From a phage: a stretch of 64,000 nucleotides of DNA. Shown here in pieces: positions 1 to 28,945 of the stretch. The notes beneath the pieces were generated by a model. That model worked only from the letters and a program-made list of their open reading frames with translations. It did not search any database and was not told the DNA's origin. The stretch lies in the sequence record PZ386970.1. One strand, 5' to 3'. Position 1 is the stretch's first letter; each line of letters opens with the position of its first letter. The translations under genes were made by a program, and so were the position numbers.

Positions 1-1027
1 CATTAGCACAATCAAAATCCGGATGTCTGAACCACCTTTTTTCTAAAAAGCCATCTAACAAAGAGGTTTCAATATTTACTGTATGTGAAAACTCAGTCTC
101 ATTTTCAAGAGTGAAAATAGTCTCTAAAGGCTTCCACAGTTCTAACAAATTACCTTCAAACTTTTCAGAAGCGTATGCTTCAAGAACTTTCAAAATGTAG
201 TCTGTGCTACCTGTACGTCCTGAAACTTTGAATTGAGTGATACCAATATCATTATAAAGTTTCAAATCTTGTGGACGAACAAAACGAGTTCTCAACCAGT
301 TAAACGGGTCTGTATCACGAGCTTTAATACAGTGCTGCATAGGATATCCATTTAAGGATTTAGCATCATCAGCTGTAACATCAGTACTATGGAAAATATA
401 GCAAGAGTCACGATAGCTACAATGTGTTGTATACCCTTTACCAGCATTAGAACAGAACTCATTTACAAGAACTTCAAATATTATATTGTTTTTATTGCAA
501 AACTCTGCTGCACGCTTCAGGAAAGAAACTGAACGGTTCTTATGAATTCCACAGCAGACCTTTTTGATATTATACTGGTCATGTAAGTATTTGATTTGAG
601 TTACAGCATCGACATGTAGAATTGTTGAAACTTCAATCTCAATGTCTTTATTGACTTCACGAACAATTTCCATAACAACAGGGTTAGCGATAGTAATACG
701 CCATACGCCTATTGACCAAAGATACTGAACATAATCCTGAATAGCTTTCTTCTTCCACTCAACTAGTTCTCTTTTTGAACCAGGATTTATCGTGTTGAGT
801 GTATAGTTAAAGCAAATACCTAATTCGTTACAACGTTTAACATAATCTTCTAACATCTTTTTGTCAACGTCAGGAAGCCTAAAATCAGGTCTGGCTGCTA
901 CAAAAGCCATTTCTCTTGTAGAGCCGTATACTTCGTTTATCAAGCTATTAGGATAAGTTTTATTGAGCTCTACGATTTTATCAAGAAGAGCTAAATCAAA
1001 ATTCGTTCCGATTTTAAAAGTATTCAT
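1..1027 (-). CDS. Partial CDS (N-terminal ~342 codons; C-terminus lies beyond the window start). Cys-rich protein with possible U32-family (YhbU/RlhA/TrhP-like Fe-S enzyme) features
   Basis: Manual reverse-complement translation from ATG at 1027 is open to position 1 (MNTFKIGTNFDLALLDKIVEL...); no complete ORF >=60 aa on any frame in 1-1083; Cys-rich segments (KVCCGIH, EFCSNAGKGYTTHCSYRDSCY) loosely resemble U32 family; family assignment is inference. Confidence 0.5.
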   Translation of the reverse strand, partial: MNTFKIGTNFDLALLDKIVELNKTYPNSLINEVYGSTREMAFVAARPDFRLPDVDKKMLEDYVKRCNELGICFNYTLNTINPGSKRELVEWKKKAIQDYVQYLWSIGVWRITIANPVVMEIVREVNKDIEIEVSTILHVDAVTQIKYLHDQYNIKKVCCGIHKNRSVSFLKRAAEFCNKNNIIFEVLVNEFCSNAGKGYTTHCSYRDSCYIFHSTDVTADDAKSLNGYPMQHCIKARDTDPFNWLRTRFVRPQDLKLYNDIGITQFKVSGRTGSTDYILKVLEAYASEKFEGNLLELWKPLETIFTLENETEFSHTVNIETSLLDGFLEKRWFRHPDFDCAN

Positions 1028-1083
1028 TTTTTTGCATCTCGCGTTAATTGATGCGATGGTTTTTGCAGGTCTTACTTAAATTA

Positions 1084-1485
1084 TTATAGATTCGGTTTAT
1101 ATGATTTAAATGTTTCGAATTCGCCTTTATTCATAAGAGCTTTGAATTCGTCAGGACGCATAGCTTTGTCGTCGATAATCCAATCATATACTGGTTTATG
1201 TGTTAGCAAATTATGGTACTTCAAACCAATGTTTTCCAAGTTCTGAATCAGACTTGGGAGAATGTCAATTGCTATACGACCAGGACCTACTGACTTCATA
1301 CCACGAGCAGTGTAAAGCGTTATGGTATGCCCTGCATCATACAGGGCATTAATGGCAGACACCATTTCGACGTCTGGTTTGAAGTTCACGTAATCACGAT
1401 TGTTATTCCACTCTGTTATACAATCATCGACATCAAAACAAAGATTAAGCATGTTTTCTACACGGTGCATTAGATTCGTTCCCAT
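1084..1485 (-). CDS. HAD-superfamily small phosphatase (KdsC-like sugar-phosphate phosphatase candidate)
   Basis: 133 aa; N-terminal DVDDCIT matches HAD motif I (DxD nucleophile); overlaps the upstream gene stop, suggesting co-translation. Confidence 0.6.
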   Translation of the reverse strand: MGTNLMHRVENMLNLCFDVDDCITEWNNNRDYVNFKPDVEMVSAINALYDAGHTITLYTARGMKSVGPGRIAIDILPSLIQNLENIGLKYHNLLTHKPVYDWIIDDKAMRPDEFKALMNKGEFETFKSYKPNL

Positions 1486-3155
1486 TGATGAGTGATATCG
1501 CCACCGATTGGACGATAGGAAACACCAGTTTCTTTATCAGTTAGTACCCATTTACCAGGATTTTTTGTAATCAGAGTAGCCGTTACAGGTTCTGCTACGT
1601 CATAACTAATAGAGCCGTCCTGAAGTACACGGCCCATGTTACGTAATTGCTTAGTCAGAAGTTCCATGCCTTTATAATATGCGGCTACCGCTTTAAGTGG
1701 ATTATTCTTGAAATAACCACCCAATGCAATCCAGATAATTGCCACCGCCAAATGATGATACTCGTTAAACGAACTCATCTTTCCATATTTGTAAACTAAT
1801 GGATTGATGTTAATAGTCACATTACAAGTTGTTTCATCAATAGTAAACTGACCCCAGGTCGGATTAGCATTGAATTCATCATAACCTGAAACAGCATAAA
1901 GCACTTTAGCTTCATCATATAATTTTGGCCCGTAAATCTTGGTTTCACCAAAATATCCACGAGGGTCGATAAACTTGACTTCGCCGTTATCAGTAATCAT
2001 AGTATTACTGAAGTTCGGGTCACCGTGAATAACAGAGTACTGTCCCTGAGAACGGTTATGATAACGAATAAGATGTTCTAAAGCTTGTTTCAACATTGGC
2101 TTCAGACGTCCAATCTTAGTGTAGTTCACGTGTGTGATTTTACCAAATGAATCAATCAATGGCTGAATGCTTTCACAACGATCAATAACTTTCGTATAGA
2201 ACTCTTTAGTGAAATCACGGCGAACAGTTTCAGGACTTACAAAATAAGTGTCTGTGCTGAATTTCAGTGCATCTAAAATTGCATCAACAATTTGTGGACG
2301 AGCAAGACTTGATTTGGATTTAATATATTCAAATGCCGGCTTACCTTTAATGCGTTCCATTTCAAAGTTATTTTCATTAACAGAAACTAACTGAGGAACT
2401 GAATCTGATTTCACTTTCAAATACCACGAAATCTCATCTTTCTGAAGAGCTCGACCCTGTTCGGTTAATGCGAATTTAGTTACAGTTTCTTCACCAATTT
2501 CAACTGCATTAAAACTACGATTAAGTTCACGAACTTCATGAGCTTTTTCAAGTTTAGGCATATCACCTAAATCAATTATATTCATAAGCTCTGATTTATT
2601 GAATGCGCCGCTGTAAAGGAATTCTACGAAATCACGTCCTTTGCAGTATTCATGAATTTCCTCATCGGTAGAACCCATATAGAATTCCCAGTCTTTGAAT
2701 TGATAAATTCCTACAACATTACCGCCTGTTGCACCTACATTAGTGATATTTTCACCGTCGAAATTATATCGACATTCATCACCCTTAACATAGATTGCGT
2801 TAACATTCCAAGACCATGAACCAAAATCAGGAATAATATCGCACCAGTTAACAATTACGTTATGGCCGTCTAAATCTTTGTGTAATTTAGCAAGAGCATA
2901 AGCAGAACCATACGCTTCATCAACTGTACGAATAGTCACATTGAACCCTTCTTGCTCACAATAAGCTCGAACAGTTTCAGCAAATTTTGAATGAACTACT
3001 ACAATAATTTCATCTGCGCCAAGGTCAGAATAAATTGTATATAAATTGCTCAGAATAGTGTCTTGTTTATAGTTAACAAGCACCTTAGGAATATGATGCG
3101 TTATTGGATACAAACGAGTTGCCAGTCCGGCACCAAGAATAACAGCTTTTTTCAT
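1470..3155 (-). CDS. Bifunctional sugar-1-phosphate nucleotidyltransferase (N-term) / sugar kinase of the APH-choline kinase fold (C-term)
   Basis: 561 aa; N-terminus AVILGAGLATRLYP matches the GxGTRL nucleotidyltransferase signature; C-terminal HGDPNFSNTMITDNGEVKFIDPRG matches the kinase catalytic loop of APH/choline-kinase-like phosphotransferases. Confidence 0.7.
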   Translation of the reverse strand: MKKAVILGAGLATRLYPITHHIPKVLVNYKQDTILSNLYTIYSDLGADEIIVVVHSKFAETVRAYCEQEGFNVTIRTVDEAYGSAYALAKLHKDLDGHNVIVNWCDIIPDFGSWSWNVNAIYVKGDECRYNFDGENITNVGATGGNVVGIYQFKDWEFYMGSTDEEIHEYCKGRDFVEFLYSGAFNKSELMNIIDLGDMPKLEKAHEVRELNRSFNAVEIGEETVTKFALTEQGRALQKDEISWYLKVKSDSVPQLVSVNENNFEMERIKGKPAFEYIKSKSSLARPQIVDAILDALKFSTDTYFVSPETVRRDFTKEFYTKVIDRCESIQPLIDSFGKITHVNYTKIGRLKPMLKQALEHLIRYHNRSQGQYSVIHGDPNFSNTMITDNGEVKFIDPRGYFGETKIYGPKLYDEAKVLYAVSGYDEFNANPTWGQFTIDETTCNVTININPLVYKYGKMSSFNEYHHLAVAIIWIALGGYFKNNPLKAVAAYYKGMELLTKQLRNMGRVLQDGSISYDVAEPVTATLITKNPGKWVLTDKETGVSYRPIGGDITHQWERI

Positions 3156-3196
3156 GTTGTGGTCCTCATTGGTAAGTAGGTGTATTGTACACTATT

Positions 3197-3340
3197 CTAG
3201 TTAAAGCATTCATACTTTGCCTGTAGACCAATCATAATCCATCCAATTACAAGTGTTGGAATCATTACTGGAGCCGTTAAGCTCCAGTAGATAGTCATGA
3301 CAAGCATCAATAGTAAAAGTCCTATTGTTATTGCTTTCAT
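3197..3340 (-). CDS. Small hydrophobic membrane peptide (47 aa), at the T4 imm-like position next to gene 43
   Basis: Manual translation MKAITIGLLLLMLVMTIYWSLTAPVMIPTLVIGWIMIGLQAKYECFN; ATG overlaps the SIS gene stop (TAATG); below the ORF-track cutoff. Confidence 0.35.
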   Translation of the reverse strand: MKAITIGLLLLMLVMTIYWSLTAPVMIPTLVIGWIMIGLQAKYECFN

Positions 3341-3972
3341 TATTCGCCTCGTAACATGGCACCTAGTGCACCGCCAGGGTGGAACTTAAGGAAGTCATTA
3401 GAGGTAAATCCACGTTCAGAAGAAAGGTTGATAGCAAACGTATCGATAAGCGCTAACAACAATGTAGTGGACATTGTCGGAGCTAAAGAGTTCTCATCGA
3501 CCTCTACCGCGATGCCTGTACAGAAAGAGTAATCAAAAAGGGCTTCATTTTCTTGCGGAATGTCAGGGTTACAATGTAACAGAATCTGTTTAACCTGAGG
3601 ACGAATCATACGAAGATGTTTAGCAACACCTATCATTTCTTCGGTCTTACCAGAACGACTAATATGAATCAACACATCATTAGGCGCAATGAATCCTGCA
3701 TCACCGTGAGAATAATGCCCGGTGTTCAAGTACATACTAGGAATACCTAGTGAAGCAAATGTCTCAGAAGCTTTAGTTGCAATATTAGCATTCTTACCAA
3801 CACCTGTAATAATTACTCGGCTTTCATAATTACTAAGTCCTGGGCGTCGAAGAGTTTCTAGAATAGCATTATAACGAGCAGGGTTTTGACTAATTACTTT
3901 GGCCATAGTAGCCAAAGAAGAAGCTTGTTTTATGATTGCGTCAATAGCGATAGTGATTGGTGTAGTTTTCAT
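3340..3972 (-). CDS. SIS-domain sugar-phosphate isomerase (KdsD/GutQ/GmhA-like; arabinose-5-phosphate isomerase candidate)
   Basis: 210 aa; VIITGVGKNANIA and HISRSGKTEE resemble the SIS phosphosugar-binding motifs (SxSGxTxE). Confidence 0.7.
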   Translation of the reverse strand: MKTTPITIAIDAIIKQASSLATMAKVISQNPARYNAILETLRRPGLSNYESRVIITGVGKNANIATKASETFASLGIPSMYLNTGHYSHGDAGFIAPNDVLIHISRSGKTEEMIGVAKHLRMIRPQVKQILLHCNPDIPQENEALFDYSFCTGIAVEVDENSLAPTMSTTLLLALIDTFAINLSSERGFTSNDFLKFHPGGALGAMLRGE

Positions 3973-4012
3973 ATTTCTCTCATTTAATTAGTTTACCGTC
4001 CATGGTATTATA

Positions 4013-6724
4013 TCAAAAATCGAACATATCGAACAGAGATGCTTTCTTCTCGTAATCGAGTTTCGCTGCTGATGTGAATCCTTCAAGTGGTTTAATAAAT
4101 GTCTTCTCAAGGAGAACAGTGTAGTCCATCCAATGAAGTACGTCGTCTTTAATTAAATCTGTGATTTCAGTACCAGAAGGCCATGCGATACATTTATCAC
4201 CGAATGGGTTTCCATCACGTAAAGGCAGAACGTATACCTTTTCGCCTTCTACAACTTGTGGAGCATCAATATTACCTTTGATAGCCCGGTTATATGTCAG
4301 AATTCCACGAATATGGAACGGGCATTTAGGACCAGGGAATCCACCAACGTCATATTTAGCAATGTTATTCGCAGAAGATACCGACGCGATGCTAATATAA
4401 TTCAATTGACGGAATTCTTTTTCAAACTCTTTAAAATATTCTTGTAATGATTCTTCACCTTCTTGAAGCATACGACGAATACATTCTTTAAGAGCTTTCT
4501 GTACTGCTTTAGGGGTCGAAGATTTCTGAGTCTCTAGACCCATGATTTTGAGTTTAGGCTCAGCGTAACGAGTACCTTCCATATCCCACACGTTTAATGC
4601 ATAACGTTTCTTACCAGTCCAGAATCCACCAATACCTTTAGAACCAAGCGGAGGCCCAGCGATAGCTTCTCGGTCCATGAACATCAAATGTTGCTTATTA
4701 TTCATGTATTCGCACATTTCACGGAAACCTCTATCAATAGCAGGTTCCATACGTTCACGAGCGAACTTATCTAAGAAGTCTACCCAATGGTTGGTATCAC
4801 GGAATTTAGATTCACCAACCTTATCGATAATTTTATCAGCAGATACGTAAATAGAGTCTGTATCACCATAAAGAACGAAAGCTTCGCCTTCTGTACCACA
4901 AACTTCATTCAGATATTCATTAACTTTACGTTCAATCCACTGTAAAGCCATTTGCCCGAATGTTGTGATTGCAGTAGCATTACGCAAATCATAATAACGG
5001 AACCAAACGTTACCAAGTGCACCATAAAGTGAGTTGATAAGCAATTTACGGTTAATTTGTGCAGTCATACCTGCAACTTCAGTACGTTGAGCTCTAAACA
5101 GCATTTCATTAAGAGATTTAGCAGACAACTTTTTAATCTTTTCTTTAATCTCATCACTGAAGTCGAAACGATAATCAACATCTAATGGTTCGTCAACAGA
5201 AAGATTAGGATTATGCAATGCCTCTTTAATTATTTCACCATTACGTTGAGCTGCAAGCATGTAACCTTTATGTTCTTTACGTTGATTAAAGACCTTAGTG
5301 ATTTCAGTTGGAACTACACCATCACGGTCTTTATAATACATCATGCCGTTAGGAGAGCAACTGTACACATCTGAAGGACGTTCAGCAACAGCGTTAATAT
5401 AATCATGCAATGGAGCTACTTTAAACGTTCCTGCTATTGTTTCTGGGCTAATATTCACTTGGCGAATAATACTTGGATACAGAGATGTAAGGTCGAAACT
5501 CATTACATATTTGTATCGATTTGGAATAGGTTCCTTAACAAAAGCGCCTGGGTAAGGTTGAACTGGATGCGAACGACCTTGTGGAATCACCTTGTTCTGC
5601 TCTTTAAGGCTATTAAAAATAATAGCATCCCATGTTTTAATTGGGCTAAACACAGATTGAATCTGTATCTTAGCATAATAACCCATGTCCAAGCTCAAGT
5701 TAATGAACTGGCGTTTAGCATCAATTTGCAATACACGATACACGTCGATAATGTTATAAGAAATATATCGTTGGTGATTGCTTTCACGAAGCTTAGAAAT
5801 AGGGCCGTCGTATTTCAGTTTACCAACGTTCAATTCAAATTCTGAAATGTAATCCAGAGAATATGACGGTTGATTGGTAAAAGAGAATTTTTTGTAAAGG
5901 TCAATGTAATCAAGAACAGAGATACCGAACAATGTAATGATTTCACGAGAACCATACATGTTTTCGATAACTTTAACACGAGTTTTACGATGTGGCGATA
6001 AACGTTTCGCAGTAGATTCGCCAAAAATATTCTTGATTCGGTTATACACATATGGAATATCAAATGACTCAACGTTCCATCCAGTCAAAATGACAGGAGT
6101 TTTCTGTTGCCAGAAGTTGAGATATTCCATCAACAATTCTTTTTCGTTATCGAACGGCATATAAATGATTTTATCGATAATTTCAGATGGAACTTCATCA
6201 CCGCCTTGTTCTTGAAGCTTAGCCGCAATTTCGATAGACCATTCTTCTACATTACCATATGGAGAATTCAATAGATCAAATACGTAGAACCTGTCGTCAA
6301 TTGAGTCATAATGGGTGATAGCATCAATCGGATGTTTTGCTTGTGACGGCTCAGGGAACCCATCCGGAGATGTTACTTCGATGTCGAAGTTAGCCACACG
6401 AATTTTTGTATGGTCGTATTTGATTTCATAGTTATAAGTGTCAGACAAATACGCCAATTTGAAATCGTCCATGCCAAGTGCTTCAAGTCCGATATCTTCC
6501 ATGCGTTTAATCCATTGGGAGGCATCACGCATATTAGCGAACAACTTACGAGTACACGGCTTACCGTAGATATCGAAATATTTCGTAGCCTGACTTTCTG
6601 GACAATGAGCAAACAGTGATGGTTTATATTCTACTTCGCGAGTACGTTCACGGCCATTAGAATCGATGTAACGTTCAAAAATTGAATCACCAATCTGTTC
6701 AACCGTTAAGTAAAATTCTTTCAT
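4013..6724 (-). CDS. 43: DNA polymerase gp43 (family B, T4/RB69 type)
   Basis: 903 aa; exonuclease motifs (FDIEV), polymerase motifs DxxSLYPS and YGDTDS; sequence recalled as matching RB69 gp43 (903 aa). Confidence 0.98.
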   Translation of the reverse strand: MKEFYLTVEQIGDSIFERYIDSNGRERTREVEYKPSLFAHCPESQATKYFDIYGKPCTRKLFANMRDASQWIKRMEDIGLEALGMDDFKLAYLSDTYNYEIKYDHTKIRVANFDIEVTSPDGFPEPSQAKHPIDAITHYDSIDDRFYVFDLLNSPYGNVEEWSIEIAAKLQEQGGDEVPSEIIDKIIYMPFDNEKELLMEYLNFWQQKTPVILTGWNVESFDIPYVYNRIKNIFGESTAKRLSPHRKTRVKVIENMYGSREIITLFGISVLDYIDLYKKFSFTNQPSYSLDYISEFELNVGKLKYDGPISKLRESNHQRYISYNIIDVYRVLQIDAKRQFINLSLDMGYYAKIQIQSVFSPIKTWDAIIFNSLKEQNKVIPQGRSHPVQPYPGAFVKEPIPNRYKYVMSFDLTSLYPSIIRQVNISPETIAGTFKVAPLHDYINAVAERPSDVYSCSPNGMMYYKDRDGVVPTEITKVFNQRKEHKGYMLAAQRNGEIIKEALHNPNLSVDEPLDVDYRFDFSDEIKEKIKKLSAKSLNEMLFRAQRTEVAGMTAQINRKLLINSLYGALGNVWFRYYDLRNATAITTFGQMALQWIERKVNEYLNEVCGTEGEAFVLYGDTDSIYVSADKIIDKVGESKFRDTNHWVDFLDKFARERMEPAIDRGFREMCEYMNNKQHLMFMDREAIAGPPLGSKGIGGFWTGKKRYALNVWDMEGTRYAEPKLKIMGLETQKSSTPKAVQKALKECIRRMLQEGEESLQEYFKEFEKEFRQLNYISIASVSSANNIAKYDVGGFPGPKCPFHIRGILTYNRAIKGNIDAPQVVEGEKVYVLPLRDGNPFGDKCIAWPSGTEITDLIKDDVLHWMDYTVLLEKTFIKPLEGFTSAAKLDYEKKASLFDMFDF

Positions 6725-6783
6725 TTAATTTCCTTTAGACGAGTTATTGTCTTTTGTTTGTTGATGAACTTATTATACTCCAA

Positions 6784-6801
6784 ATGGGACCGAAGTCCCA
6801 T
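6784..6801 (-). terminator. Stable UUCG-tetraloop hairpin between regA and gene 43 (terminator or gene 43 mRNA regulatory structure)
   Basis: Minus RNA AUGGGAC-UUCG-GUCCCAU; no clean U-tract; followed by TATAAT-like sequence ~50 nt upstream of the gene 43 ATG. Confidence 0.45.
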
Positions 6802-6805
6802 TGCT

Positions 6806-7174
6806 TTAATTACCAATTGTATATTTTGCTTTCAAAGTCCAGTCGTCTTTCTGTTTAAAAGAGATAACACGGAAGTTATTAGTCAGGCTAAATAGATCTT
6901 CACGAGCAGAGTCTTCAATAACAATCAATCCCCAGTCTTCAAGCAACTGAGCAATCGAATCACGTCGCTGATAGTCTTCACCGTCAATATCAACCTGGCG
7001 TCCATCCATACGCAGCATTTCTTTAAAGTGGACAATATAGTACTTACCTTGCTTTTGGAGGATATGACAAGACTGGTAAAGGACTTTATCTTTGTTATTA
7101 GCGATGCCCATACGGGTCAAAGTCTCTTTGACTTTCAGAAAATCTTCAGGGTTCTTCAATTTAATTTCAATCAT
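6806..7174 (-). CDS. regA: RegA translational repressor
   Basis: Translation from MIEIKLKNPEDFLKVKETLTRMGIANNKDKVLYQSCHIL is near-identical to recalled T4 RegA (122 aa); start overlaps gp62 stop as in T4. Confidence 0.93.
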   Translation of the reverse strand: MIEIKLKNPEDFLKVKETLTRMGIANNKDKVLYQSCHILQKQGKYYIVHFKEMLRMDGRQVDIDGEDYQRRDSIAQLLEDWGLIVIEDSAREDLFSLTNNFRVISFKQKDDWTLKAKYTIGN

Positions 7175-7176
7175 TT

Positions 7177-7740
7177 TTACCATTCCAATGCTAATTTTTT
7201 AAATTGTTTTTGTTCTTTCACGTTTTTGGTAACTTCTTTAAGAAATTCATCAGTGACCATGGCCTTCAGTTCTTTAAGGACTATTGGCAACTTGTTATTT
7301 TTTTCAAGGAGCCGCTTATACTCGGTAGCATCATTCATGTTGATTGTGTAATGTTTCATCAACAGTTTGATAACTAGTAACTCTGAAGTGTCTTCAACTA
7401 GTTTAGCCCATTTAGAGAATCGACGACCACGCGGAATTGCCGCCATCATATAGTTGAAGTGCGCTTCATCACTTAATTCAGAACCGACTAAGTTCATCAT
7501 GTAAACGGCTGGCATACATTCTGGGAACTGTGATAATGAGTTCTCAACCATAAATTTTGAGTAGTCGACCTGAGCAATTGACATAGATTTCTTTTCATTA
7601 ATAGCATTAATGATTTTAAAGAATTCATTCTCAGGTTTTTCTTTAAACATATCAGCACATTTTTGAATCGCATCAGCGTCATTAGACTTCCATGCAATTT
7701 GGTGCTCGTTAAGCTGGACGTCATCATCGAATAAGTTCAT
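7177..7740 (-). CDS. 62: Clamp-loader subunit gp62
   Basis: 187 aa (same length as T4 gp62), between gp44 and regA in conserved order. Confidence 0.88.
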
Positions 7741-7741
7741 A

Positions 7742-8704
7742 TTATTTCCAAGTCAGTTCACAGGTCAGTTGAAGAAGCATATACATAACATGTAATTCAA
7801 TATTACTTGCTAGTCCATGAAACTTATTATTTTCGCCTGCAATTTCGTAAAGCGAAATAATACTTTTACCAGGTGCAACTTGGTCATAACATTCTGAAAC
7901 TAATTTATCGATGAACCATGAATAATCTGCAGCATATTTTGGAGCTAATGCACGAAGTTGTTTGATATCTTTGTTCTTCATTGCTTCGATAACATCAGAG
8001 ACTGTGCCACGGTCATTAGTTACGATAGACAGAATACCTGCATCAAGAACACCTTTAGACGAGTACTGGTCTAATTGGCCAATTGTACGACGAAAGTCTG
8101 GGAAGTTCTTTTTAACCAGAGCTGCAACAACTTTCATATCAGCGATTTCGATATTTTCGTTCTTACAGATTTCAACCATACGATGAATCATTTTCTTCAT
8201 CATCGAGATTTTATCTTCTTCAGTCGGACGACCGAATTCGATAACTCGACAACGGCTACGTAATGGTTCAATAATTCCGTCAATGTTGTTAGCAGTGATA
8301 ATAATAGAGCAGTTACTAGAGAATTCTTCCATAAACGTACGAAGGTGACGTTGTGATTCGGCGAGGCCACTACGGTCAAATTCATCAATAACAATAACTT
8401 TAGGCTTGCCTTCCATTGAGACTGAACGAGCGAATGCAGTTAACGGACCACGCACAAAATCAATCTTACAATCAGAACCGTTGACGAACATCATTTCGGC
8501 ATTGATATCATTACATAATGCTTTTGCTACGGTTGTTTTACCTGTACCAGGAGAAGGAGAGTGCAAAATAATATGAGGAAGTTTTCCTTTAGATACTAAA
8601 GACTTGAATGTTTCGTGGTCATACGCAGGCAGAATACATTCGTCAATGGAAGAAGGACGATATTTCTGTTCTAGAATGTGTTCTTTGGAATTGATAGTAA
8701 TCAT
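7742..8704 (-). CDS. 44: Clamp-loader ATPase subunit gp44 (AAA+)
   Basis: 320 aa; Walker [11 protein letters not shown], Walker [12 protein letters not shown] motif (LRSRC). Confidence 0.95.
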
Positions 8705-8779
8705 GTAATTTTCCTCATTATCATTAAACTGGAGGATTTCTCCTCCATAATCGTACTACATTAAACGTAAAGCTTTGAC

Positions 8780-9466
8780 TTAGAAGTCGTGAGTAGAATC
8801 AGCTTCCATTGCAATAACATAACTTACTTGAGAGCTTTCAAACTTAGCTGCAACTTTATCACCAGCTCCCCACAACATTACTTTATAGTTACCTGGCTGG
8901 ATTTTCATATTAGCCATATTGATTACGAAGTTAAAGTTGTTAGAACCATCATAATCGGTAAGAGTCAAAGAATACTTAGGACGAGTCAAGCCAGAATCTT
9001 CAACTTTATTGTAACCGTTGATAACAATTTTACCATCTTTATTTGTAATAGCAATTGTATCAATCTGCAGTCCACGTGAAACTCGGAGCAATTGTTGGAG
9101 GTCTTCAGCTTTAATTTCAGTAATAACGGAAGCTACTGGGAACTGAATTGGCTTATTCGGGAACACGATAGTGCTCTTGTCAGCGGCAGGCCAATAAACT
9201 GTGGAACGTGTATCTGCAATTTTAATATTACCGTCAGTGTGCATTGAAATTTCAGCATCATCAGACACTAGACTCAAAATGCTTAAGAAGCTATTCAAAT
9301 CATAAAGTGCTACGTCAAAATCAATTTCATCAGAGATATTTGCTTCTGCATAAGTGGTGCCATTAACTGCACGAGTCATAATAAATTTACCTTGACTCAG
9401 AAGAATACCGGAGTTAATAGAGGCAAAGTTTTTCAGAATAGCGATAGTATCTTTAGACAGTTTCAT
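8780..9466 (-). CDS. 45: Sliding clamp gp45
   Basis: Start taken at MKLSKDTIAILKNF giving 228 aa, the T4 gp45 length; position after gp44. Confidence 0.93.
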   Translation of the reverse strand: MKLSKDTIAILKNFASINSGILLSQGKFIMTRAVNGTTYAEANISDEIDFDVALYDLNSFLSILSLVSDDAEISMHTDGNIKIADTRSTVYWPAADKSTIVFPNKPIQFPVASVITEIKAEDLQQLLRVSRGLQIDTIAITNKDGKIVINGYNKVEDSGLTRPKYSLTLTDYDGSNNFNFVINMANMKIQPGNYKVMLWGAGDKVAAKFESSQVSYVIAMEADSTHDF

Positions 9467-9506
9467 TTTATTTCCTTTCAAGACAATTCAAAGTTTAACA
9501 AATTTA

Positions 9507-9923
9507 TTATGCAGCAACCATCTGCTTTTTAATAGCTTCAGGCAGTGATTCAATATATTCTGGAATTTTAGAAGCAACAATTTCGCCAGCTGCAATTAGT
9601 TGTTCGTCGGCATCAACACAGTAAAAATCTTCAAGGCGTTCAGAACCGTCTTTATCAAGAACGATTTTAGCACCTGCTTCGATAGAATCTTTATAGTGCT
9701 TACGCATCAGATGAATCCACATATCAGATACATCATTATCAATAAAACCATAAATCATAAAACGAGTTTCTTGTGGCAAAGATTGAAGCTTTTTAGCACT
9801 TGCGTCATCACAATGCAGGACCCATGCTTTACGAACACGATTATGGTTATGCGGGTTAGCGTCAGTACGGATAGAAGTAACTTTCAGATCAGCAGCGGTA
9901 AAACCTTTAGCAGTAGTAAACAT
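9507..9923 (-). CDS. rpbA: RNA polymerase-binding protein RpbA
   Basis: 138 aa ORF at the T4 rpbA position between gene 45 and 46; assignment by synteny and size. Confidence 0.7.
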   Translation of the reverse strand: MFTTAKGFTAADLKVTSIRTDANPHNHNRVRKAWVLHCDDASAKKLQSLPQETRFMIYGFIDNDVSDMWIHLMRKHYKDSIEAGAKIVLDKDGSERLEDFYCVDADEQLIAAGEIVASKIPEYIESLPEAIKKQMVAA

Positions 9924-9935
9924 ATTATTTCTCTC

Positions 9936-10136
9936 TTATTCGTAGAAGTCGGTAACTGTCCATGCGGAATTGCGATTAGACATTATTTTATTATACTCAT
10001 CTTTAAAAGCAGATTTGAGCATTTGTTCAGTAACAATATGTTCTTCACCTGAAAAAGTATTGGTCAAAACATATTTTTTAATTTCAGGGACAACGAGAAG
10101 ATGTTGTCCGGTTGAATACTCCATGTTGTTCTCCAT
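9936..10136 (-). CDS. Hypothetical protein (45.2 position)
   Basis: 66 aa ORF, tightly packed between rpbA and gene 46. Confidence 0.5.
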   Translation of the reverse strand: MENNMEYSTGQHLLVVPEIKKYVLTNTFSGEEHIVTEQMLKSAFKDEYNKIMSNRNSAWTVTDFYE

Positions 10137-10178
10137 TTAATTTGATGTGGTCATTATAACCACATCGTGTTAAAGCGT

Positions 10179-11867
10179 TTATGAAACAGTCATCACAGTA
10201 AATCGTCCAACTTTGCTCATTTGAAGATGTTGTCCATAAGCTTGTGGGTCATGGTCTCTGTGACTAATTATAAACACGTTTGCATCGGTTAGAGAGTTAA
10301 GAATTGTTGAAATAGCTTTAATACCTTCAGAATCAGTCGCTGAATCCATGACTTCGTCCATAATTAATGTATTGATTCTAACACCAGAGACCTTTTCAGC
10401 AATATCTCGCCATGTAAACAACAATGCGATATCGATACGTGCCTTTTCACCTTGACTAAATGAAGCATAACTAAAATCTTCACGGCCACGTGATTTTATA
10501 GATTCATTGAATTCTTCGTCAATAGAAAACACGTAATCAGCTTCCATGATTTTAAGATAATGGTTAATCTGCTTGTTGAACAGAGGCACATATTTTTTAA
10601 TGATAGCACCTTTAATACCAGAATCTTTTAACATATCTGTGATAATACCACGATGGTATTTTTCAAGAACGATATCTGATTTTGTTTTAATGATTTTATC
10701 AAGTTCTTTTTGAAGCAAAGCTATCTCATCGGCATGGTCGATAAATTCTGCTGAGGCTTGTTCTATTGCAGCTTTAACTTTCTTAGCTTTATCAATAGTG
10801 GCAATCATTGCTTGTTTCTTGGTACGAATATCAGATGCAAGGTCCTGTTTAGTCTTAACATTAGCTCTATATTCGTCCACTAGGACACTCAGATTATCTC
10901 TGTGACAGGTAAGTTGCTCGAATGAGTGATTACATTCATGAAGCTTATCGGTAATCTTAGAGACAATAGGATCACCCTGGTGCAACTGTGATGCGCAAGT
11001 AGGACATGTACCGCCATCATGATACATCTTAATAACTTTGTTATATGAGTCAATTTTAGATTTAATCAAGAATGCTTCTTGTCCTATCTTGTTGAATGCC
11101 TCAGTAGGATCTTCATCAAGAACGATATTAAGTAGTCGCTCATTAGCTTCTTCGATTTCTGCTTTTAATGAACGAGCTTCTTTGGCTAGGTCGTCATACA
11201 TATTCTGTAGACGCGCTACATTATCACCAGATAATTTCTTTTGACGTTCGATATTATCGTTATAAATCTTAATTTGTTGGATAATACCATCTTTCTTGGC
11301 ATCAAGAACTTGTCCCTGGGAATTAAGTTCTCGAACTTGAGACTTATTGATTTTATCCATTTCAGCGAGTGTGCCAACTTCTAAAAGGTCTTCGACAAGT
11401 TTTCTACGAGCAGGGGTGCTAAGAGCCATGAAAGGGGTATACCCTGCCGTCCCAAGCACAACGATTTGTTTAAAAGACGCGTATGACATTCCGATGCTAC
11501 GTTCAAATTCTTCTTGGAAGTCACGACTGCTGGCAGATTCATCGAGACGAACACCGTCAACGGAGATTTCGAAAATATTGGGCTTTTGGCCGCGTTTAAT
11601 GAAGTATTTTTTATCATCGAATTCCATCCAAAGCTCAACTAAGAGCTCTTTCTTGTTCGTGCTATTAATGATTTGTCCTTTCTTAACATCACGAAATGGT
11701 TTACCGAAAAGTCCGAAAGTAATGGCTTCTAACATCGTAGATTTACCACCGCCGTTTTTACCGGTGATTAATGTCTTTTGGACTTTATCTAATTGGATAT
11801 CAATAGGATTCCCACCTACCGACATGATGTTTTGATAACGAACACGATTTAATTTAAATGATTTCAT
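10179..11867 (-). CDS. 46: Recombination/repair exonuclease subunit gp46 (Rad50/SbcC-like ATPase)
   Basis: 562 aa; Walker A GKNGGGKST, central coiled coil, CxxC zinc hook (GGTCPTCASQ), C-terminal signature/Walker B region. Confidence 0.95.
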   Translation of the reverse strand: MKSFKLNRVRYQNIMSVGGNPIDIQLDKVQKTLITGKNGGGKSTMLEAITFGLFGKPFRDVKKGQIINSTNKKELLVELWMEFDDKKYFIKRGQKPNIFEISVDGVRLDESASSRDFQEEFERSIGMSYASFKQIVVLGTAGYTPFMALSTPARRKLVEDLLEVGTLAEMDKINKSQVRELNSQGQVLDAKKDGIIQQIKIYNDNIERQKKLSGDNVARLQNMYDDLAKEARSLKAEIEEANERLLNIVLDEDPTEAFNKIGQEAFLIKSKIDSYNKVIKMYHDGGTCPTCASQLHQGDPIVSKITDKLHECNHSFEQLTCHRDNLSVLVDEYRANVKTKQDLASDIRTKKQAMIATIDKAKKVKAAIEQASAEFIDHADEIALLQKELDKIIKTKSDIVLEKYHRGIITDMLKDSGIKGAIIKKYVPLFNKQINHYLKIMEADYVFSIDEEFNESIKSRGREDFSYASFSQGEKARIDIALLFTWRDIAEKVSGVRINTLIMDEVMDSATDSEGIKAISTILNSLTDANVFIISHRDHDPQAYGQHLQMSKVGRFTVMTVS

Positions 11868-12112
11868 ATGTATTCTCTTCGAATGAAGTCCTCTACATAT
11901 TTTAACATGTCATCCCTATCAGCAAAATATTCATCTAGTTCTGCATACATAACAACACCTGGTGCGTACTCACAGGTAACATACATTGTTCCAAAGAAAC
12001 GAGGAGTTGATTCCTCGTAATTCTCAGTCCATTCTACGATACCAAAATAACCGTCGCCAATACTAAATTCATGGCGCTGGTATTCATTAGTCTTCGTAGT
12101 CATTATAAGCAT
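11864..12112 (-). CDS. Hypothetical protein (46.1 position)
   Basis: 82 aa ORF, start overlaps upstream stop. Confidence 0.5.
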   Translation of the reverse strand: MLIMTTKTNEYQRHEFSIGDGYFGIVEWTENYEESTPRFFGTMYVTCEYAPGVVMYAELDEYFADRDDMLKYVEDFIRREYI

Positions 12113-12347
12113 CCTCGATGCAGGCTTCAGCCATTTTCAGAAGAGAACCAGGAGTATCACCGTCCATTACATTGAAACTGAATTCCACAGCCCAGTCTGT
12201 ACAGACACGAACTGCTTTAACTTCACCGTCTTCAACTCGTAATGGTTCAATCCAGTATTTCACTGTGTTCTCGAATCCATCATCATCTTTAACGTCTATT
12301 TCAACTTCAAGCCCGAGCCCAGCATTGTTAAATTCATCTAAAGTCAT
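12087..12347 (-). CDS. Hypothetical acidic protein (46.2 position)
   Basis: 86 aa ORF between gp47 and gp46. Confidence 0.5.
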   Translation of the reverse strand: MTLDEFNNAGLGLEVEIDVKDDDGFENTVKYWIEPLRVEDGEVKAVRVCTDWAVEFSFNVMDGDTPGSLLKMAEACIEDAYNDYED

Positions 12348-13363
12348 TGTGTTGCCTCAATATAAAGTTCGTTGGAATATTTGACCAGCGCTTCTCTGTC
12401 TTCGTCTGAGATATCTGGAATCGCATCAATATATTCTTTAATGATATCTTGAAGTGATTTAATCTCGATTTCCTGGTCGTCATCGGATTCAACACTGTTA
12501 TCAACTTTAGAAACCATACGAAGAGAGTGAACTACTTTTTCAAGTTCAGATTCAAACTTAGTCAATTCTGAATCAATTTCTGATACTATAACACGTACGG
12601 CTAGATTAGTATAATCAGAATAATTGATTTTGCCTTTAAACGGATAAGTGATTCGTCGATGCCATGTTGTTTCATTAGGAATAAATTCCATACGTTCAAC
12701 ATCAGTGTCAAATACCCAGAATCCGCGCGGGTCATTCTCATCGCCTGCAGTAAGGGTCCATGGTGTCCCAATATATTTGACGTTAGCAGCTTCAGAGATT
12801 GTGTGGAAGTGGCCAGACCAGACTTGTTTATAGGTCTTTAAGAAATCAGGTTCAAGCCCATGAGACTTCATTCCTTTATAGAAATAAAAGCCATTCAGTT
12901 CCCAGTGTCCAACACAATACGCAGCAGAAGAAGTCTTGATGTGCTCTAAGATTTCACCTGTATTTTCTTCACACATCCATGGAATTAAATCAATCAGACA
13001 CCCATCGAAATCAACAGTCGTAGGTTTATCATAAATAACAACATTTTTACGATGAGACAAAAGCTCTTGGGTTGTATTAGGGTATAAAGTTGTCTTATAA
13101 AAAAGGTCGTGGTTACCCAAAATAGTGTGAACGGTTATTCCAGCGTTTTCAGCCATATCAAATAATTCACGAGTAAACTCCATACAACGTTGTGTTGTGT
13201 GAGCTCGTACATCAAATACGTCCCCGTACTGTATCCATGTTGTTATTCCATTTTTAACAGAATAATCCACCATTTGTTTGAATCCGTGTCGTTGGATGTT
13301 TTGAATCCAAACATCATCCTTTTTTACACCTAAGTGCAAATCGCCCACGTTAAGAATTTTCAT
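12344..13363 (-). CDS. 47: Recombination/repair nuclease subunit gp47 (Mre11/SbcD-like metallophosphatase)
   Basis: Start at MKILNVGDLHLG gives 339 aa (T4 gp47 length); phosphoesterase motifs GDLHLG, GDVFD, GNHD. Confidence 0.95.
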   Translation of the reverse strand: MKILNVGDLHLGVKKDDVWIQNIQRHGFKQMVDYSVKNGITTWIQYGDVFDVRAHTTQRCMEFTRELFDMAENAGITVHTILGNHDLFYKTTLYPNTTQELLSHRKNVVIYDKPTTVDFDGCLIDLIPWMCEENTGEILEHIKTSSAAYCVGHWELNGFYFYKGMKSHGLEPDFLKTYKQVWSGHFHTISEAANVKYIGTPWTLTAGDENDPRGFWVFDTDVERMEFIPNETTWHRRITYPFKGKINYSDYTNLAVRVIVSEIDSELTKFESELEKVVHSLRMVSKVDNSVESDDDQEIEIKSLQDIIKEYIDAIPDISDEDREALVKYSNELYIEATQ

Positions 13364-14177
13364 ATTGCACCTTAAATTTACCATAAATTATACTGTGATA
13401 ACTTAAATCAGGAAAACCTTCTGCGACGGCTAAAGGTCTAAACTTCTTAGGACTTATTCTACCACATTTTACCCAAAGAGTATATAGTGCTTCATAATAT
13501 TCAAATAATGGTCCTTTACGAGCTTCAGAAACAGTTTTACGCACTTTGTCCTTTATTGACGGGTCTAAATTTCTAAGGGTTTCACTAATTTTGTTTCGAT
13601 GGGTTTCATTAATAAGATTTCCTTTAACCCAGCCTTCAGGTTCAGTCCCTGGGACAAACATTTTCTTTTCTTTGCCATTATTATACCATTTGCGACCTTT
13701 ATTGTGACTAGAGGCTTTATATTCAGGAGAACGACCTTTTACATTACCTTCTGGTATATAAGGTAGAAAACTTTGTTCTAACGTTTCAGGGTTGTATGAG
13801 TGTATATGGCCTTTACCATTATGTGAGCCGTACAATGGGTGCTCTTCTTTTGGAAGTGATAATCCGAAAAATCCTTTAGGAGCAGCAATTGCTTTATTCA
13901 TATACATCGGGTTATTGGCAGCATCCACCTTTAGTTGGAGTAAACGTTCAGCTTTTGTCGCTTCTTCTCTTGTGGCGTGTTCACTTACAATACATGAATC
14001 AAAAAGATGTGGATTCATTTTTAGTTCAGAATTGTAAATTTCCTTATACGCTTTTGATAAAACCGTTCCGTGATATCCAGCTTTATGTTTTGCAATATTT
14101 GTGGAACCTATATAAAACGGTGGAAGTTTGTCACCATCATAAATCGTAAAATATACTATGTACATGTTATTCTCCAT
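13350..14177 (-). CDS. Free-standing GIY-YIG homing endonuclease (seg-like) with NUMOD3-type DNA-binding repeats
   Basis: 275 aa; N-terminal YIVYFTIYDG...FYIGST (GIY-YIG), downstream Glu-rich catalytic region, repeated basic HxxK/NKGRKWYNNGKEKK segments; occupies the T4 alpha-gt position. Confidence 0.8.
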   Translation of the reverse strand: MENNMYIVYFTIYDGDKLPPFYIGSTNIAKHKAGYHGTVLSKAYKEIYNSELKMNPHLFDSCIVSEHATREEATKAERLLQLKVDAANNPMYMNKAIAAPKGFFGLSLPKEEHPLYGSHNGKGHIHSYNPETLEQSFLPYIPEGNVKGRSPEYKASSHNKGRKWYNNGKEKKMFVPGTEPEGWVKGNLINETHRNKISETLRNLDPSIKDKVRKTVSEARKGPLFEYYEALYTLWVKCGRISPKKFRPLAVAEGFPDLSYHSIIYGKFKVQYENS

Positions 14178-14467
14178 TTTGTATAGAAATTACTATATCA
14201 TAGTTTATACTGTTTGTAAACCCTAGAAACGAGAAAAGGAACTCCGAAGAGTTCCTATCCACATAGTACACCGTACAGAGGCTCATTTGAACTTTTAAAT
14301 CGAATGGGCTTGTATGTAATAGTTCCTTCGGCAGAAGCTTTATCATAAGACTCTTTAAAACGTCTCATTCTTTCTGCTTTGCCTTTACGGATTTTATCGA
14401 AATTTTCAGAAGTCGGGATGTTCGTCATGCATAAGCACCTCTCAGAAAATGCCTAAATCGATTTCTC

Positions 14468-14689
14468 TCATCGTTTCCACCATTTCTTAACTTGAAATGA
14501 ATCAACCCACACGAGTTGTTTTGGGTCTGCCTTTACAATAGGCAGACAAATTTCTGTAATAGAACCGTCGTGATATTCCTTTTCAGAAATTTTAACACAA
14601 AGAGGACCTCCCAATTTAAGGGTGAACCCTGCGTTCAGCTTCAGACGTTTAAACTTTGTTTGAACTAGCGCCATTAATGATGTCCTCAA
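14468..14689 (-). CDS. Hypothetical protein
   Basis: 73 aa ORF. Confidence 0.45.
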   Translation of the reverse strand: MRTSLMALVQTKFKRLKLNAGFTLKLGGPLCVKISEKEYHDGSITEICLPIVKADPKQLVWVDSFQVKKWWKR

Positions 14690-14972
14690 TAGCCTGACGA
14701 GTAGTAACCCACTGGATTTTAATTAACTTGTCATTATATGGTTGTCGTAGAATATCCCGAGATTTCTTAATAGCATATTCGTAAGCTTCGAAGTTGTTTT
14801 GAATTGCTGCTTCTTGAGCATGAGCATAAAGACGGTTTAGCTCAAAACGATTCTTTTTAAGAATCTTTTCGGATTTTTTACGTGCTTCAGCTTCATTTTT
14901 CTTTTGTATTTCTTGTAGCATTTTGGCTACTGCATCTTCTGCTTCTTTATTTTCAATAATCTCGGTAGTCAT
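14649..14972 (-). CDS. Hypothetical protein (coiled-coil, K/E-rich)
   Basis: 107 aa ORF. Confidence 0.5.
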   Translation of the reverse strand: MTTEIIENKEAEDAVAKMLQEIQKKNEAEARKKSEKILKKNRFELNRLYAHAQEAAIQNNFEAYEYAIKKSRDILRQPYNDKLIKIQWVTTRQAIEDIINGASSNKV

Positions 14973-14973
14973 A

Positions 14974-15189
14974 TTATCTCATTAAATTAAAATAAAAACG
15001 TCCGTCCTCTTCAATACAGAACTCGTACTCAACTGGAGTCCCATTTATCGAAAATGACACGTCATGTGGGTTCAAAGGGTCGATGTCAAAATTAATTTTA
15101 AATTCTCTACCCAACAGTTTTACCAAATAAGGGATTGCTTCGTCAAAAGGTTCTTCTAAGTAGTTAGAGATGTCAATTGTTATCCTCAT
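14974..15189 (-). CDS. Hypothetical protein (start placed at internal Met to avoid overlap with gene 55)
   Basis: ORF-track frame 14974..15267; internal start [10 protein letters not shown] chosen by non-overlap; uncertain. Confidence 0.4.
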
Positions 15190-15730
15190 ATAAAAAATCC
15201 AAACTAGGCGAATCGCTAACAACTTCCTTCTTTTCAGCCCCAGGAGCTTTATAAGCTGATTCTTCATAATGCGTCATTTTATCGTAGATGTCTTGAATAA
15301 ACGTTTCATCTACCAACGCTACCATATCATCGTCATGACTGTCGTAGACATTATGAACGAAGTAACTATATTTCTTTGCAACTTCCTTACGTTCTTTTTT
15401 GATACGTTGGACAAAAGCATTAAAACAAGCTCGAGTTATGTATGCATGTGGGTTATTGTACTTAGTTTCGTCGAAATTATGAAGTCCCTTAATAGAGGCT
15501 TCAATCCCATCTGCAATCATCTCCTGCTTCCAAGACTGGGTATATCCTGAAAAGTTGAAACGTTTGGACAGGCCTTCGGCGATAAGCATAATTGCTAAAC
15601 CGATGGTATCATTCTGACGAATAATTTTGTTTGGGTCTTTATTATTTAAGAGCTCCTTTTTCCACTCGATTATAGCGGCGAGAAGCTCTTTATTATTCAC
15701 ATAGTTATTTTTAGGTTTTTGTTCAGTCAT
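15173..15730 (-). CDS. 55: Late-transcription sigma factor gp55
   Basis: 185 aa; near-identical to recalled T4 gp55 (…[15 protein letters not shown]…[38 protein letters not shown]…). Confidence 0.95.
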
Positions 15731-18983: not shown

Positions 18984-19454
18984 TTAATCATGTTTCCACA
19001 CCCCATCGGTATTTGACCAAAGTCGCTGATTATCTGATCCTCGCCACAGCTTTTTGGTCGGAAGATTTTTCTCATACTTCCCATCAATAATAACATCAAC
19101 ATATTTAAGCATTTCTAGCTGTTTAATATCTTCAAACTTATATCCTGTCCACAACCAAATGCTTTTATTAGGATAAAGATTTTTTACTGTTTGAACAATG
19201 CAATGAATAACATCTCGGTTATCAGGATAGAGAGGGTCACCTCCGGTTATAGTCAATCCTTCTATATAATCATTATTCAAACATTCAATTAATTGTTCTA
19301 GTGTTTCACCAGTGAATGGAATACCATTTCTAGCATTCCATGTTGATTTATTATAACACCCTTCGCATTTATGCAAACACCCTGTAACGAAAAGAACGAC
19401 CCTACAACCAGGGCCATTCACAAAATCGCAAGGATAAAACCTATCATAATTCAT
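18984..19454 (-). CDS. nrdG: Anaerobic ribonucleotide reductase activating protein NrdG (radical SAM)
   Basis: 156 aa; radical-SAM cluster motif GCLHKCEGCYN; position next to nrdD. Confidence 0.93.
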   Translation of the reverse strand: MNYDRFYPCDFVNGPGCRVVLFVTGCLHKCEGCYNKSTWNARNGIPFTGETLEQLIECLNNDYIEGLTITGGDPLYPDNRDVIHCIVQTVKNLYPNKSIWLWTGYKFEDIKQLEMLKYVDVIIDGKYEKNLPTKKLWRGSDNQRLWSNTDGVWKHD

Positions 19455-20724: not shown

Positions 20725-20756
20725 CTTCATCATTATATTCAGCATGAGTCGCAAAT

Positions 20757-21527: not shown

Positions 21528-21556
21528 TGTTTCACCTCGTATTCATAAGATAATCT

Positions 21557-21564
21557 TATTTATA
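21557..21564 (-). promoter_or_regulatory. T4-type late promoter inside the nrdD intron, upstream of the homing-endonuclease ORF
   Basis: Minus-strand TATAAATA ~30 nt upstream of the endonuclease ATG. Confidence 0.7.
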
Positions 21565-21776
21565 CAAGATGACTGCTGCATGTCGCCATGCAGATTAGAC
21601 TATATCTTCATCTTTCGATGCCGGCCGTTTCGAATAGCATTAGCTTCTATTCTACACCGTTACATTCATCACGGTTAGTCGTTAGGCATTTAGTTCAAAA
21701 GAACATTTAGCACGGGATTGTCTTACTAGAGAGGTTCCCCGTTTAGACCGGTTTTACATGAGCCTGAATTAAATTA

Positions 21777-26852: not shown

Positions 26853-26914
26853 AACTATTTCCTCAGATTGAATTGGAACTCAAAACCATTATAACCCGTC
26901 CTTGGGTAAAGCGT

Positions 26915-27442: not shown

Positions 27443-27459
27443 GTTTTACCTCCAGTAGT

Positions 27460-27488
27460 TGATAGGTCTATAATAACATAACCATAGA
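27460..27488 (-). promoter_or_regulatory. Early promoter with overlapping stem-loop (PeSL-like cassette): -35 GTTTAC, 17-nt spacer, -10 TATTAT
   Basis: Minus strand GTTTAC-N17-TGTTATTAT, inverted repeat GGTCTAT/ATAGACC around the -10; ~20 nt upstream of RBS and ATG of ORF 26915..27442. Confidence 0.7.
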
Positions 27489-27500
27489 CCTTGTAAACAA

Positions 27501-28928: not shown

Positions 28929-28945
28929 TTCGTTTCGATAGGTCT

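Follow-up and report, generated by a model that had tools for sequence, protein, structure and literature searches.

An RB69-type locus for arabinose supply in phage record PZ386970.1 and a candidate hydroxylase of the U32 family encoded beside it

Genes of the cassette

We analyzed a stretch of 64,000 nucleotides from the phage sequence record PZ386970.1, referred to below as the window, and focused on the gene cassette at positions 1-3972, which is predicted to supply an arabinose donor for DNA modification and which also contains a gene for a protein of the U32 family. The cassette consists of five genes, all on the minus strand and downstream of the DNA polymerase gene gp43 (4013-6724; Table 1). 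Comparison of positions 1-6997 with positions 26,626-33,623 of phage RB69 revealed 97.7% DNA identity with three gaps, and the Mosigvirus GADS24 is 98% identical to the window and has the same gene order. Judged by this similarity, positions 1-3972 are the already known RB69 locus ORF050c-055c (ORF055c, 054c, 053c+052c, 051c and 050c, in order from the gp43 side), as an earlier reading of the letters alone, hereafter the original prediction, had suspected.

The original prediction described four co-directional, overlapping genes. All four open reading frames (ORFs) are present on the minus strand as described, but only the junctions at 3340 and 1470 overlap, the other two being gaps of 41 and 56 nt, and the number of genes is five, a conserved ORF of 47 aa having been overlooked. 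The ratio of nonsynonymous to synonymous substitution rates (dN/dS), determined against Serratia phage LC53, is 0.12-0.17 for the HAD, fusion and 47-aa genes; for the U32 and SIS genes dS has reached saturation, and the dN of the U32 gene is the lowest of the five. The cassette genes, including the 47-aa ORF, are real and constrained. A scan of positions 1-4200 for promoters and terminators gave 14 sites versus 15.3 expected, which is no excess over chance. The fusion enzyme is encoded in 374 phage records and the U32 protein in 222; for the 5-hydroxy-deoxycytidine monophosphate (5-hydroxy-dCMP) synthase, discussed below, the number is 346.

Table 1. Features of the window, and of the related sequences L005 and L006, with their coordinates
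Feature	Coordinates	Strand	Remarks
SIS isomerase (RB69 ORF055c homologue)	3340-3972	-	210 aa
Hydrophobic, membrane-like ORF (RB69 ORF054c region)	3197-3340	-	47 aa; between isomerase and fusion genes
Nucleotidyltransferase-kinase fusion (RB69 ORF053c+052c, AfhE-like)	1470-3155	-	561 aa
HAD phosphatase (RB69 ORF051c, AfhF-like)	1084-1470	-	128 aa; 133 aa if ATG at 1485
U32-family Fe-S protein (RB69 ORF050c)	1-1027	-	first 342 of 386 codons; runs off the window
AroQ chorismate mutase	L005 8158-8502; L006 8158-8397		just past window position 1 in relatives
Homing-endonuclease ORF	13350-14177	-	275 aa; between gp47 and gp55; PHROG 10820 6e-75, 314 3.5e-18
nrdG	18984-19454	-	
nrdD exon 2	19451-20782	-	
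GIY-YIG/NUMOD1 homing endonuclease ORF	20757-21527	-	
Group I intron in nrdD	21576-21812	-	RF00028, 72.3 bits, E 5e-18
nrdD exon-1 ORF	21769-22314	-	

Profile searches with the SIS protein gave matches to PF01380 (2.6e-10), to the KpsF/GutQ family TIGR00393 (4.7e-32) and to the KdsD family NF008141 (1.3e-30). The scores for the latter two are below the full-length (equivalog) cut-offs, and model positions 2-153 of 268 are covered, because the C-terminal tandem CBS domains of full-length KdsD are not present in the 210-aa protein. It resembles the single-domain isomerase 3etn (3.4e-25; E. coli KdsD, 2xhz, 7.6e-19), and a residue-by-residue alignment with 3etn, 5uqi and 2xhz revealed that the active-site positions GxGK, HGD and Glu/E...APTxSTT are kept. 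Profiles and active-site positions agree with the originally proposed class of KdsD/GutQ-like arabinose-5-phosphate isomerases, and the protein is predicted to turn ribulose-5-phosphate into D-arabinose-5-phosphate and back; in the literature on the RB69-type cluster this function is a prediction too (PMC13326640).

The N-terminus of the fusion protein matches NTP_transferase (8.4e-10, residues 3-99), with further NCBIfam-type matches to archaeal GlmU, AglF and MurU-type nucleotidyltransferases and a match to PDB entry 1jyk (2e-05). Its C-terminal half gave weak matches to kinase folds (fructosamine, ecdysteroid and RIO kinase folds; residues 308-409). The profile searches hence agree with both domains of the predicted nucleotidyltransferase-kinase fusion and assigned no unrelated function to it. 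With respect to its motifs, HGDPNFSN (residue 377) and IDPRG (residue 396) are present as described, but the supposed GxGTRL is in fact GAGLATRL (residue 8), with the pattern GxGxxTRL. The fusion protein shares 98.9% aa identity with RB69 ORF052c/053c, and the single intact ORF in the window is consistent with the report that ORF053c and ORF052c of RB69 constitute one gene of 561 residues (Thomas 2018, PMC6024577). Its length and domain order point to the AfhE-type architecture of ~560 aa, with an N-terminal sugar-1-phosphate nucleotidyltransferase and a C-terminal APH/choline-kinase fold. According to the account given in PMC13326640, both AfhE activities are reported for the homologue of phage HY126 (He et al. 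2026).

The third protein had been described as a small HAD phosphatase with a DxD nucleophile, and a DVDD motif is indeed present at residue 18 of its 133-aa form; its start, however, is probably the ATG at 1470, as annotated in relatives, and not the one at 1485. The protein is near-identical to the solved structure 9iqw (9.3e-87, residues 1-128; 1xpj, 1.4e-10), and this near-identity leads us to assume that 9iqw, like the structures 9iqc, 9ir2 and 9iqu mentioned below, stems from the work on phage HY126. The match to the capsule phosphatase subfamily TIGR01689 (1.9e-13) reaches 50.5 bits versus a curated cut-off of 162, and we therefore regard the protein as a relative of this EcbF/BcbF subfamily rather than a member. 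AfhF is a Mg-dependent phosphatase whose role is reported for HY126 (PMC13326640, after He et al. 2026).

The 47-aa ORF is annotated in GADS24 and LC53. It matches phrog_3610 (6.8e-27) and shares 60% aa identity with its LC53 counterpart at a dN/dS of 0.17; searches of Pfam and NCBIfam gave no match. A membrane-like peptide is thus encoded among the genes of a cytoplasmic nucleotide-sugar pathway. We also observed that in many GenBank and RefSeq records the gene for the HAD phosphatase is entered as "phosphoheptose isomerase" and that for the fusion protein as "GlmU"; both names are wrong.

A probable supply arm for UDP-arabinofuranose

The DNA of RB69 carries arabinose, and the fusion gene and ORF055c were proposed to serve the synthesis of UDP-arabinose (Thomas 2018, PMC6024577). 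Tandem mass spectrometry (MS/MS) and nuclear magnetic resonance (NMR) later identified the RB69 base as 5-hydroxycytosine bearing arabinofuranose via a C5 ether bond, and not hydroxymethylcytosine (Lee 2026, NAR, PMC13326640). The same work established that 5-hydroxy-dCMP is the product of gp48, which has flavin bound and takes the oxygen from O2, and assigned gp51, gp52:53 and gp55 to the synthesis of UDP-D-arabinofuranose (UDP-Araf); phage transferases use UDP-Araf on DNA in vitro (PMC13326640).

Because of the near-identity to characterized proteins and this published chemistry, positions 1-3972 very probably comprise one accessory gene and the arm that supplies UDP-arabinofuranose in the 5-arabinosyl-hydroxycytosine cluster known from RB69-like (Mosigvirus) phages. 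The SIS isomerase would convert ribulose-5-phosphate to D-arabinose-5-phosphate, which the kinase domain of the fusion protein would phosphorylate at C1 to yield arabinose-1,5-bisphosphate. The HAD phosphatase would then take off the 5-phosphate, and the nucleotidyltransferase domain would combine the resulting arabinose-1-phosphate with UTP to give UDP-arabinofuranose. The glycosyltransferases gp46:47 and gp3, encoded beyond the window, would transfer arabinose to the 5-hydroxyl of 5-hydroxycytosine, and 5-hydroxy-dCMP would be made by gp48, an O2- and flavin-dependent homologue of thymidylate synthase encoded just past position 1. The gp48 homologue adjoining the window is near-identical to the structures 9iqc/9ir2/9iqu.

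The general idea of the original prediction, that the cassette supplies a nucleoside diphosphate (NDP)-pentose donor, arabinose, for DNA hypermodification, matches the published assignment for RB69 (PMC13326640, PMC6024577). As it had also implied, the transferase is located elsewhere: gp46:47, which acts as the initial transferase, lies ~1.2-2.2 kb past position 1, and gp3 is far off, near rIIA. No arabinosyltransferase was found in the window by tblastn with RB69 gp3 and gp46:47 (best E 1.8); the sequences of the T4 alpha- and beta-glucosyltransferases were not searched.

The order of reactions and the acceptor had been predicted differently. The HAD phosphatase was thought to convert arabinose-5-phosphate to free arabinose, to be phosphorylated at C1 by the kinase and transferred, via an NDP-pentose, to hydroxymethylcytosine. 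The enzyme classes permit such a scheme on paper, Table 1 of PMC13326640 states that gp51 "dephosphorylates Araf5p to Ara", and the base was once named ara-hmC (Thomas 2018, PMC6024577). The text of PMC13326640, however, citing the biochemistry of AfhE and AfhF of HY126 (He 2026), gives a route from arabinose-5-phosphate to the 1,5-bisphosphate (AfhE kinase), the 1-phosphate (AfhF) and UDP-arabinofuranose (AfhE); the reported order is thus isomerase, kinase, HAD and uridylyltransferase, with no free arabinose. Moreover, the relatives of the HAD protein are sugar-bisphosphate and capsule phosphatases, and the MS/MS and NMR results for the base stand against the hydroxymethylcytosine acceptor. 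We consider the free-arabinose scheme improbable. That the cassette modifies the host surface through capsule or lipopolysaccharide (LPS) sugar nucleotides, as the database names "capsule biosynthesis protein", "KpsF" and "GlmU" might suggest, is extremely improbable, since in 340-plus phage genomes the genes lie within a block for replication and nucleotide metabolism, beside those for the hydroxylase of the base, for its kinase and for DNA glycosyltransferases, and since both the arabinose on RB69 DNA and the in vitro use of UDP-Araf point to DNA.

Some points weigh against the supply-arm assignment. The pathway gives no role to the 47-aa ORF or to the fusion protein's final ~60 residues, and the order of the AfhE and AfhF reactions is known second-hand, as He 2026 is reported in PMC13326640. 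In addition, a paper on the Shewanella phage Thanatos describes UDP-xylose chemistry for a neighbouring protein, and the identity of the pentose may therefore differ between lineages.

The RB69 gp45-gp55 cluster and the Afh cluster of HY126 (Thomas 2018, Mahler 2025, He 2026, Lee 2026) have the same genes in the same order, and the window shows nothing substantively different; the half of the cluster comprising the hydroxylase, kinase and transferase genes falls outside the window. T4 pursues the same strategy in the same neighbourhood, between gene 43 and uvsX, for the glucosylation of hydroxymethylcytosine (gp42 and the alpha- and beta-glucosyltransferases): in both systems, a thymidylate-synthase homologue makes a modified dCMP that is glycosylated after incorporation. 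T4, however, draws on the UDP-glucose of its host and does without a donor pathway, and its base is hydroxymethylcytosine instead of 5-hydroxycytosine. In the pathway to ADP-L-glycero-beta-D-manno-heptose (GmhA, HldE and GmhB), the same four-step logic can be recognized, with a SIS isomerase, a bifunctional kinase/nucleotidyltransferase and a HAD sugar-bisphosphate phosphatase. The phage cassette differs in that the sugar is a pentose, the isomerase resembles KdsD and not GmhA, the fold of the kinase is of the APH/choline-kinase instead of the ribokinase type, the nucleotidyltransferase domain precedes the kinase domain, and the product is used on DNA and not on LPS.

The comparison confirms the window as belonging to an RB69-type phage, i.e. 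one with arabinosylated 5-hydroxycytosine DNA, which in practice bears on restriction, CRISPR and sequencing behaviour. The sugar-supply locus is already published, hence there is nothing new in the cassette itself; the remaining value lies in the U32 protein and the chorismate mutase described below.

The U32 protein and its gene neighbourhood

The original prediction left the partial ORF at 1-1027 unassigned and described it as Cys-rich and running off the window. The latter is correct, and the encoded protein, with 10 Cys in 342 aa, belongs to the Pfam U32 family (PF01136, Peptidase_U32; 5.4e-11, 42.7 bits versus a gathering score of 22.4). Extension of the ORF past position 1, as had been recommended, was achieved with GADS24, which provided the full length. 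Characterized members of the U32 family are Fe-S enzymes needed where hydroxylation proceeds without O2 and requires prephenate (PMC5727448, PMC6599085, PMC10990095). RlhA generates 5-hydroxycytidine in 23S rRNA, for which its residues E161, C169 and C176 are essential (PMC5727448), TrhP generates 5-hydroxyuridine (ho5U) in tRNA, and UbiU/V hydroxylate ubiquinone precursors, prephenate having been shown to be the oxygen donor. In E. coli such enzymes are paired with O2-dependent counterparts, namely TrhO for TrhP and flavin enzymes for UbiU/V.

Profile comparison with hhalign gave a match between the phage U32 protein and RlhA (E 2.4e-5 over 203 columns) in which the Glu and Cys pair is aligned, and a weak match to UbiU (E 0.008). 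In both MAFFT and hhalign alignments, E185 and C209 of the phage protein align with the RlhA motif; the other Cys of the pair is either C192 or C203, two invariant residues. Across 31 U32 homologues ten Cys are invariant, including a C-terminal Cx4Cx3Cx2C, of which only the first Cys lies within the window. A sequence search of the PDB gave nothing at E <= 1, and the best PDB fold match of the AlphaFold2 (AF2) model (pLDDT 88.5) is 5d88, the only solved U32 structure. The phage protein thus shares with RlhA, TrhP and UbiU-UbiV the Pfam domain, and with RlhA the essential Glu and Cys and, if the proposal made below is right, C5 hydroxylation of cytosine. It is distinct from them in its identity of ~20%, its compact size of 360-390 aa without RNA-binding extensions, its own invariant Cx4Cx3Cx2C and its context of DNA-precursor metabolism.

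In the Serratia phage LC53 and the Enterobacter phage Entb_45, a gene for an AroQ chorismate mutase (Pfam CM_2, 1.7e-11 and 2.4e-10), the prephenate-forming enzyme, overlaps the stop codon of the U32 gene by 4 nt. A tblastn search located the mutase in 54 phage records, whose hosts belong to 13 or more genera, and every listed record has it at the U32 locus, beside an annotated peptidase and/or thymidylate-synthase gene. PHROGs lists this phage chorismate mutase under phrog_10027, a family labelled as of unknown function. The 79-aa ORF that follows the U32 gene in Mosigviruses (RB69 ORF049c) was considered as a diverged mutase and rejected: it has no CM_2 match, BLASTP with the LC53 mutase gave E 0.15, and it belongs to phrog_8601, not 10027.

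The 222 cultured phages with a U32 gene all infect Enterobacterales or Shewanella. U32 homologues of 49-56% identity are also encoded on uncultured phage-like contigs, of which ten metagenomic contexts were sampled and 15-21 kb of each viewed. A homologue of the initial glycosyltransferase (GT1; same PHROG 3891, E 1e-7 to 1e-15) adjoins the U32 gene in seven of the ten, the usual flanks being a Tmk-like kinase gene before the GT1 homologue and a PolIII-alpha gene after U32; in one contig a TET-associated glycosyltransferase and a dUTPase follow U32 directly. A thymidylate-synthase-like (ThyA-like) gene was seen in none of the ten contexts as viewed. The siphophage-like contigs L017-L022 (~44-61 kb, 30-40% GC; U32 at ~10001-11100 or 3741-4820) share the module (dUTPase) - Tmk-like kinase - GT1 homologue - U32 - PolIII-alpha - RecA, which has no relatives among 50,697 cultured phage records and may be the sign of a system for DNA glycosylation not described before. 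The 80-kb contig L012 (25% GC) has, at 4996-10804, consecutive genes for a GT1 homologue, a SIS protein, an AfhE-like fusion, U32, a DAHP synthase (2.6e-70), with which the pathway to prephenate begins, and an NAD-dependent sugar epimerase/reductase; UDG, NUDIX and a split PolIII-alpha are encoded nearby. Judged by its gene content, this cluster is arabinosylation-like with a shikimate-pathway enzyme.

Positions 7185-15428 of the bacterial-looking contig L003 (dockerin/GH43 neighbour) encode a U32 homologue whose neighbours are a 5'-nucleotidase, a PnuC-like transporter, a deoxynucleoside kinase, a radical SAM/SPASM protein, another, divergent U32 and a nucleoside deoxyribosyltransferase. A radical SAM/SPASM gene is again found near U32 in L002, L018 and L019.

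Homology and gene neighbourhood together suggest that gp50, the product of ORF050c, represents a compact U32 subfamily that would hydroxylate C5 of a deoxypyrimidine nucleotide without O2 and with prephenate as oxygen donor, a proposal to which we give about an even chance. In RB69-like phages, the U32 protein would back up the O2- and flavin-dependent gp48-type hydroxylase as a second route to the hydroxylated base, which would permit cytosine replacement during anaerobic growth in the gut. With NrdD, an anaerobic ribonucleotide reductase, and the activase NrdG both encoded in the window, the phage has the means for O2-free synthesis of DNA precursors, though the known cytosine hydroxylase needs O2, and a U32 backup would parallel the phage's paired aerobic and anaerobic ribonucleotide reductases. 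In the uncultured siphophages with PolIII-alpha, a pathway to glycosylated DNA would have U32 as its only hydroxylase, because the kinase-GT1-U32 module comes without a ThyA-like gene in the 15-21 kb viewed. From the dedicated nucleotide kinase of this minimal module, our guess is that U32 acts on a mononucleotide.

Alternatively, the U32 protein may not be a hydroxylase of DNA precursors but a sugar or heterocycle reductase, a true peptidase, or an RNA hydroxylase that, like TrhP or RlhA, acts on phage or host tRNA or rRNA. This is a serious contender, the prospects of which we place a little short of even. RB69 gp50 appears only in Table 1 of Lee 2026, under the label "sugar or heterocycle reductase", and the text of that paper contains neither "chorismate" nor "prephenate" (PMC13326640); the fold matches after 5d88 are generic TIM barrels, including methylenetetrahydrofolate reductase. 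A role as reductase or peptidase would, however, leave unexplained the chorismate mutase gene directly after U32 in 54 phage genomes, the DAHP synthase beside U32 in L012, and the repeated adjacency of GT1 and a Tmk-like kinase in uncultured phages in which no ThyA-like gene was seen. The possibility of an RNA substrate is favoured by the fact that the characterized pyrimidine-hydroxylating U32 proteins act on RNA, but RlhA and TrhP have long C-terminal extensions that are absent from the phage proteins.

Other observations count against a U32 hydroxylase of DNA precursors, or at least limit the proposal. No U32 hydroxylase has so far been reconstituted in vitro (PMC10990095), and the uncultured contigs were viewed in part. 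The gene downstream of U32 in Mosigviruses is no recognizable chorismate mutase, and the phage studied here would therefore depend on host PheA/TyrA for prephenate. Furthermore, ~40 E. coli Dhakavirus-type genomes have the cluster and manage without U32, which also favours a function outside DNA-precursor hydroxylation.

The Dhakaviruses bear as well on the idea that U32 strictly tracks facultatively anaerobic hosts. Acinetobacter is an obligate aerobe, and U32 can be present in at most three of the 57 phages of this genus that have the cluster; in the one inspected, the HAD gene is directly followed by that of the 5-hydroxy-dCMP synthase. The Acinetobacter phages thus fit the idea but the Dhakaviruses do not, so that it is half true and the correlation with host lifestyle is one-sided. 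A literature search for a link between U32 proteins and phage DNA modification found none, He 2026 and Mahler 2025 being outside that search.

If the U32 protein is a hydroxylase of DNA precursors, it would represent the first way of making a hydroxylated DNA base without O2 and the third pair of aerobic and anaerobic hydroxylases after those for ubiquinone and tRNA ho5U, in this case a viral one. It would also give a reason for a phage-borne chorismate mutase, and U32 would point to a so far unseen class of glycosylated DNA in phages that are uncultured and possibly anaerobic. Finally, a family without in vitro reconstitution would gain an enzyme that is small and soluble and acts on a simple nucleotide.

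Mobile elements elsewhere in the window

The original prediction noted a GIY-YIG endonuclease at the T4 alpha-gt position, and the ORF at 13350-14177 is identified as a homing endonuclease by PHROG; it has no match to a Pfam family. This ORF looks like a mobile insertion, because GADS24 has only small ORFs in the gp47-gp55 interval.

A scan of positions 1-23000 with Rfam at the gathering threshold gave nothing, and a focused scan then detected the group I intron in nrdD. The nrdD gene is interrupted at 19451-22314 of the window and uninterrupted in the close relative GADS24.

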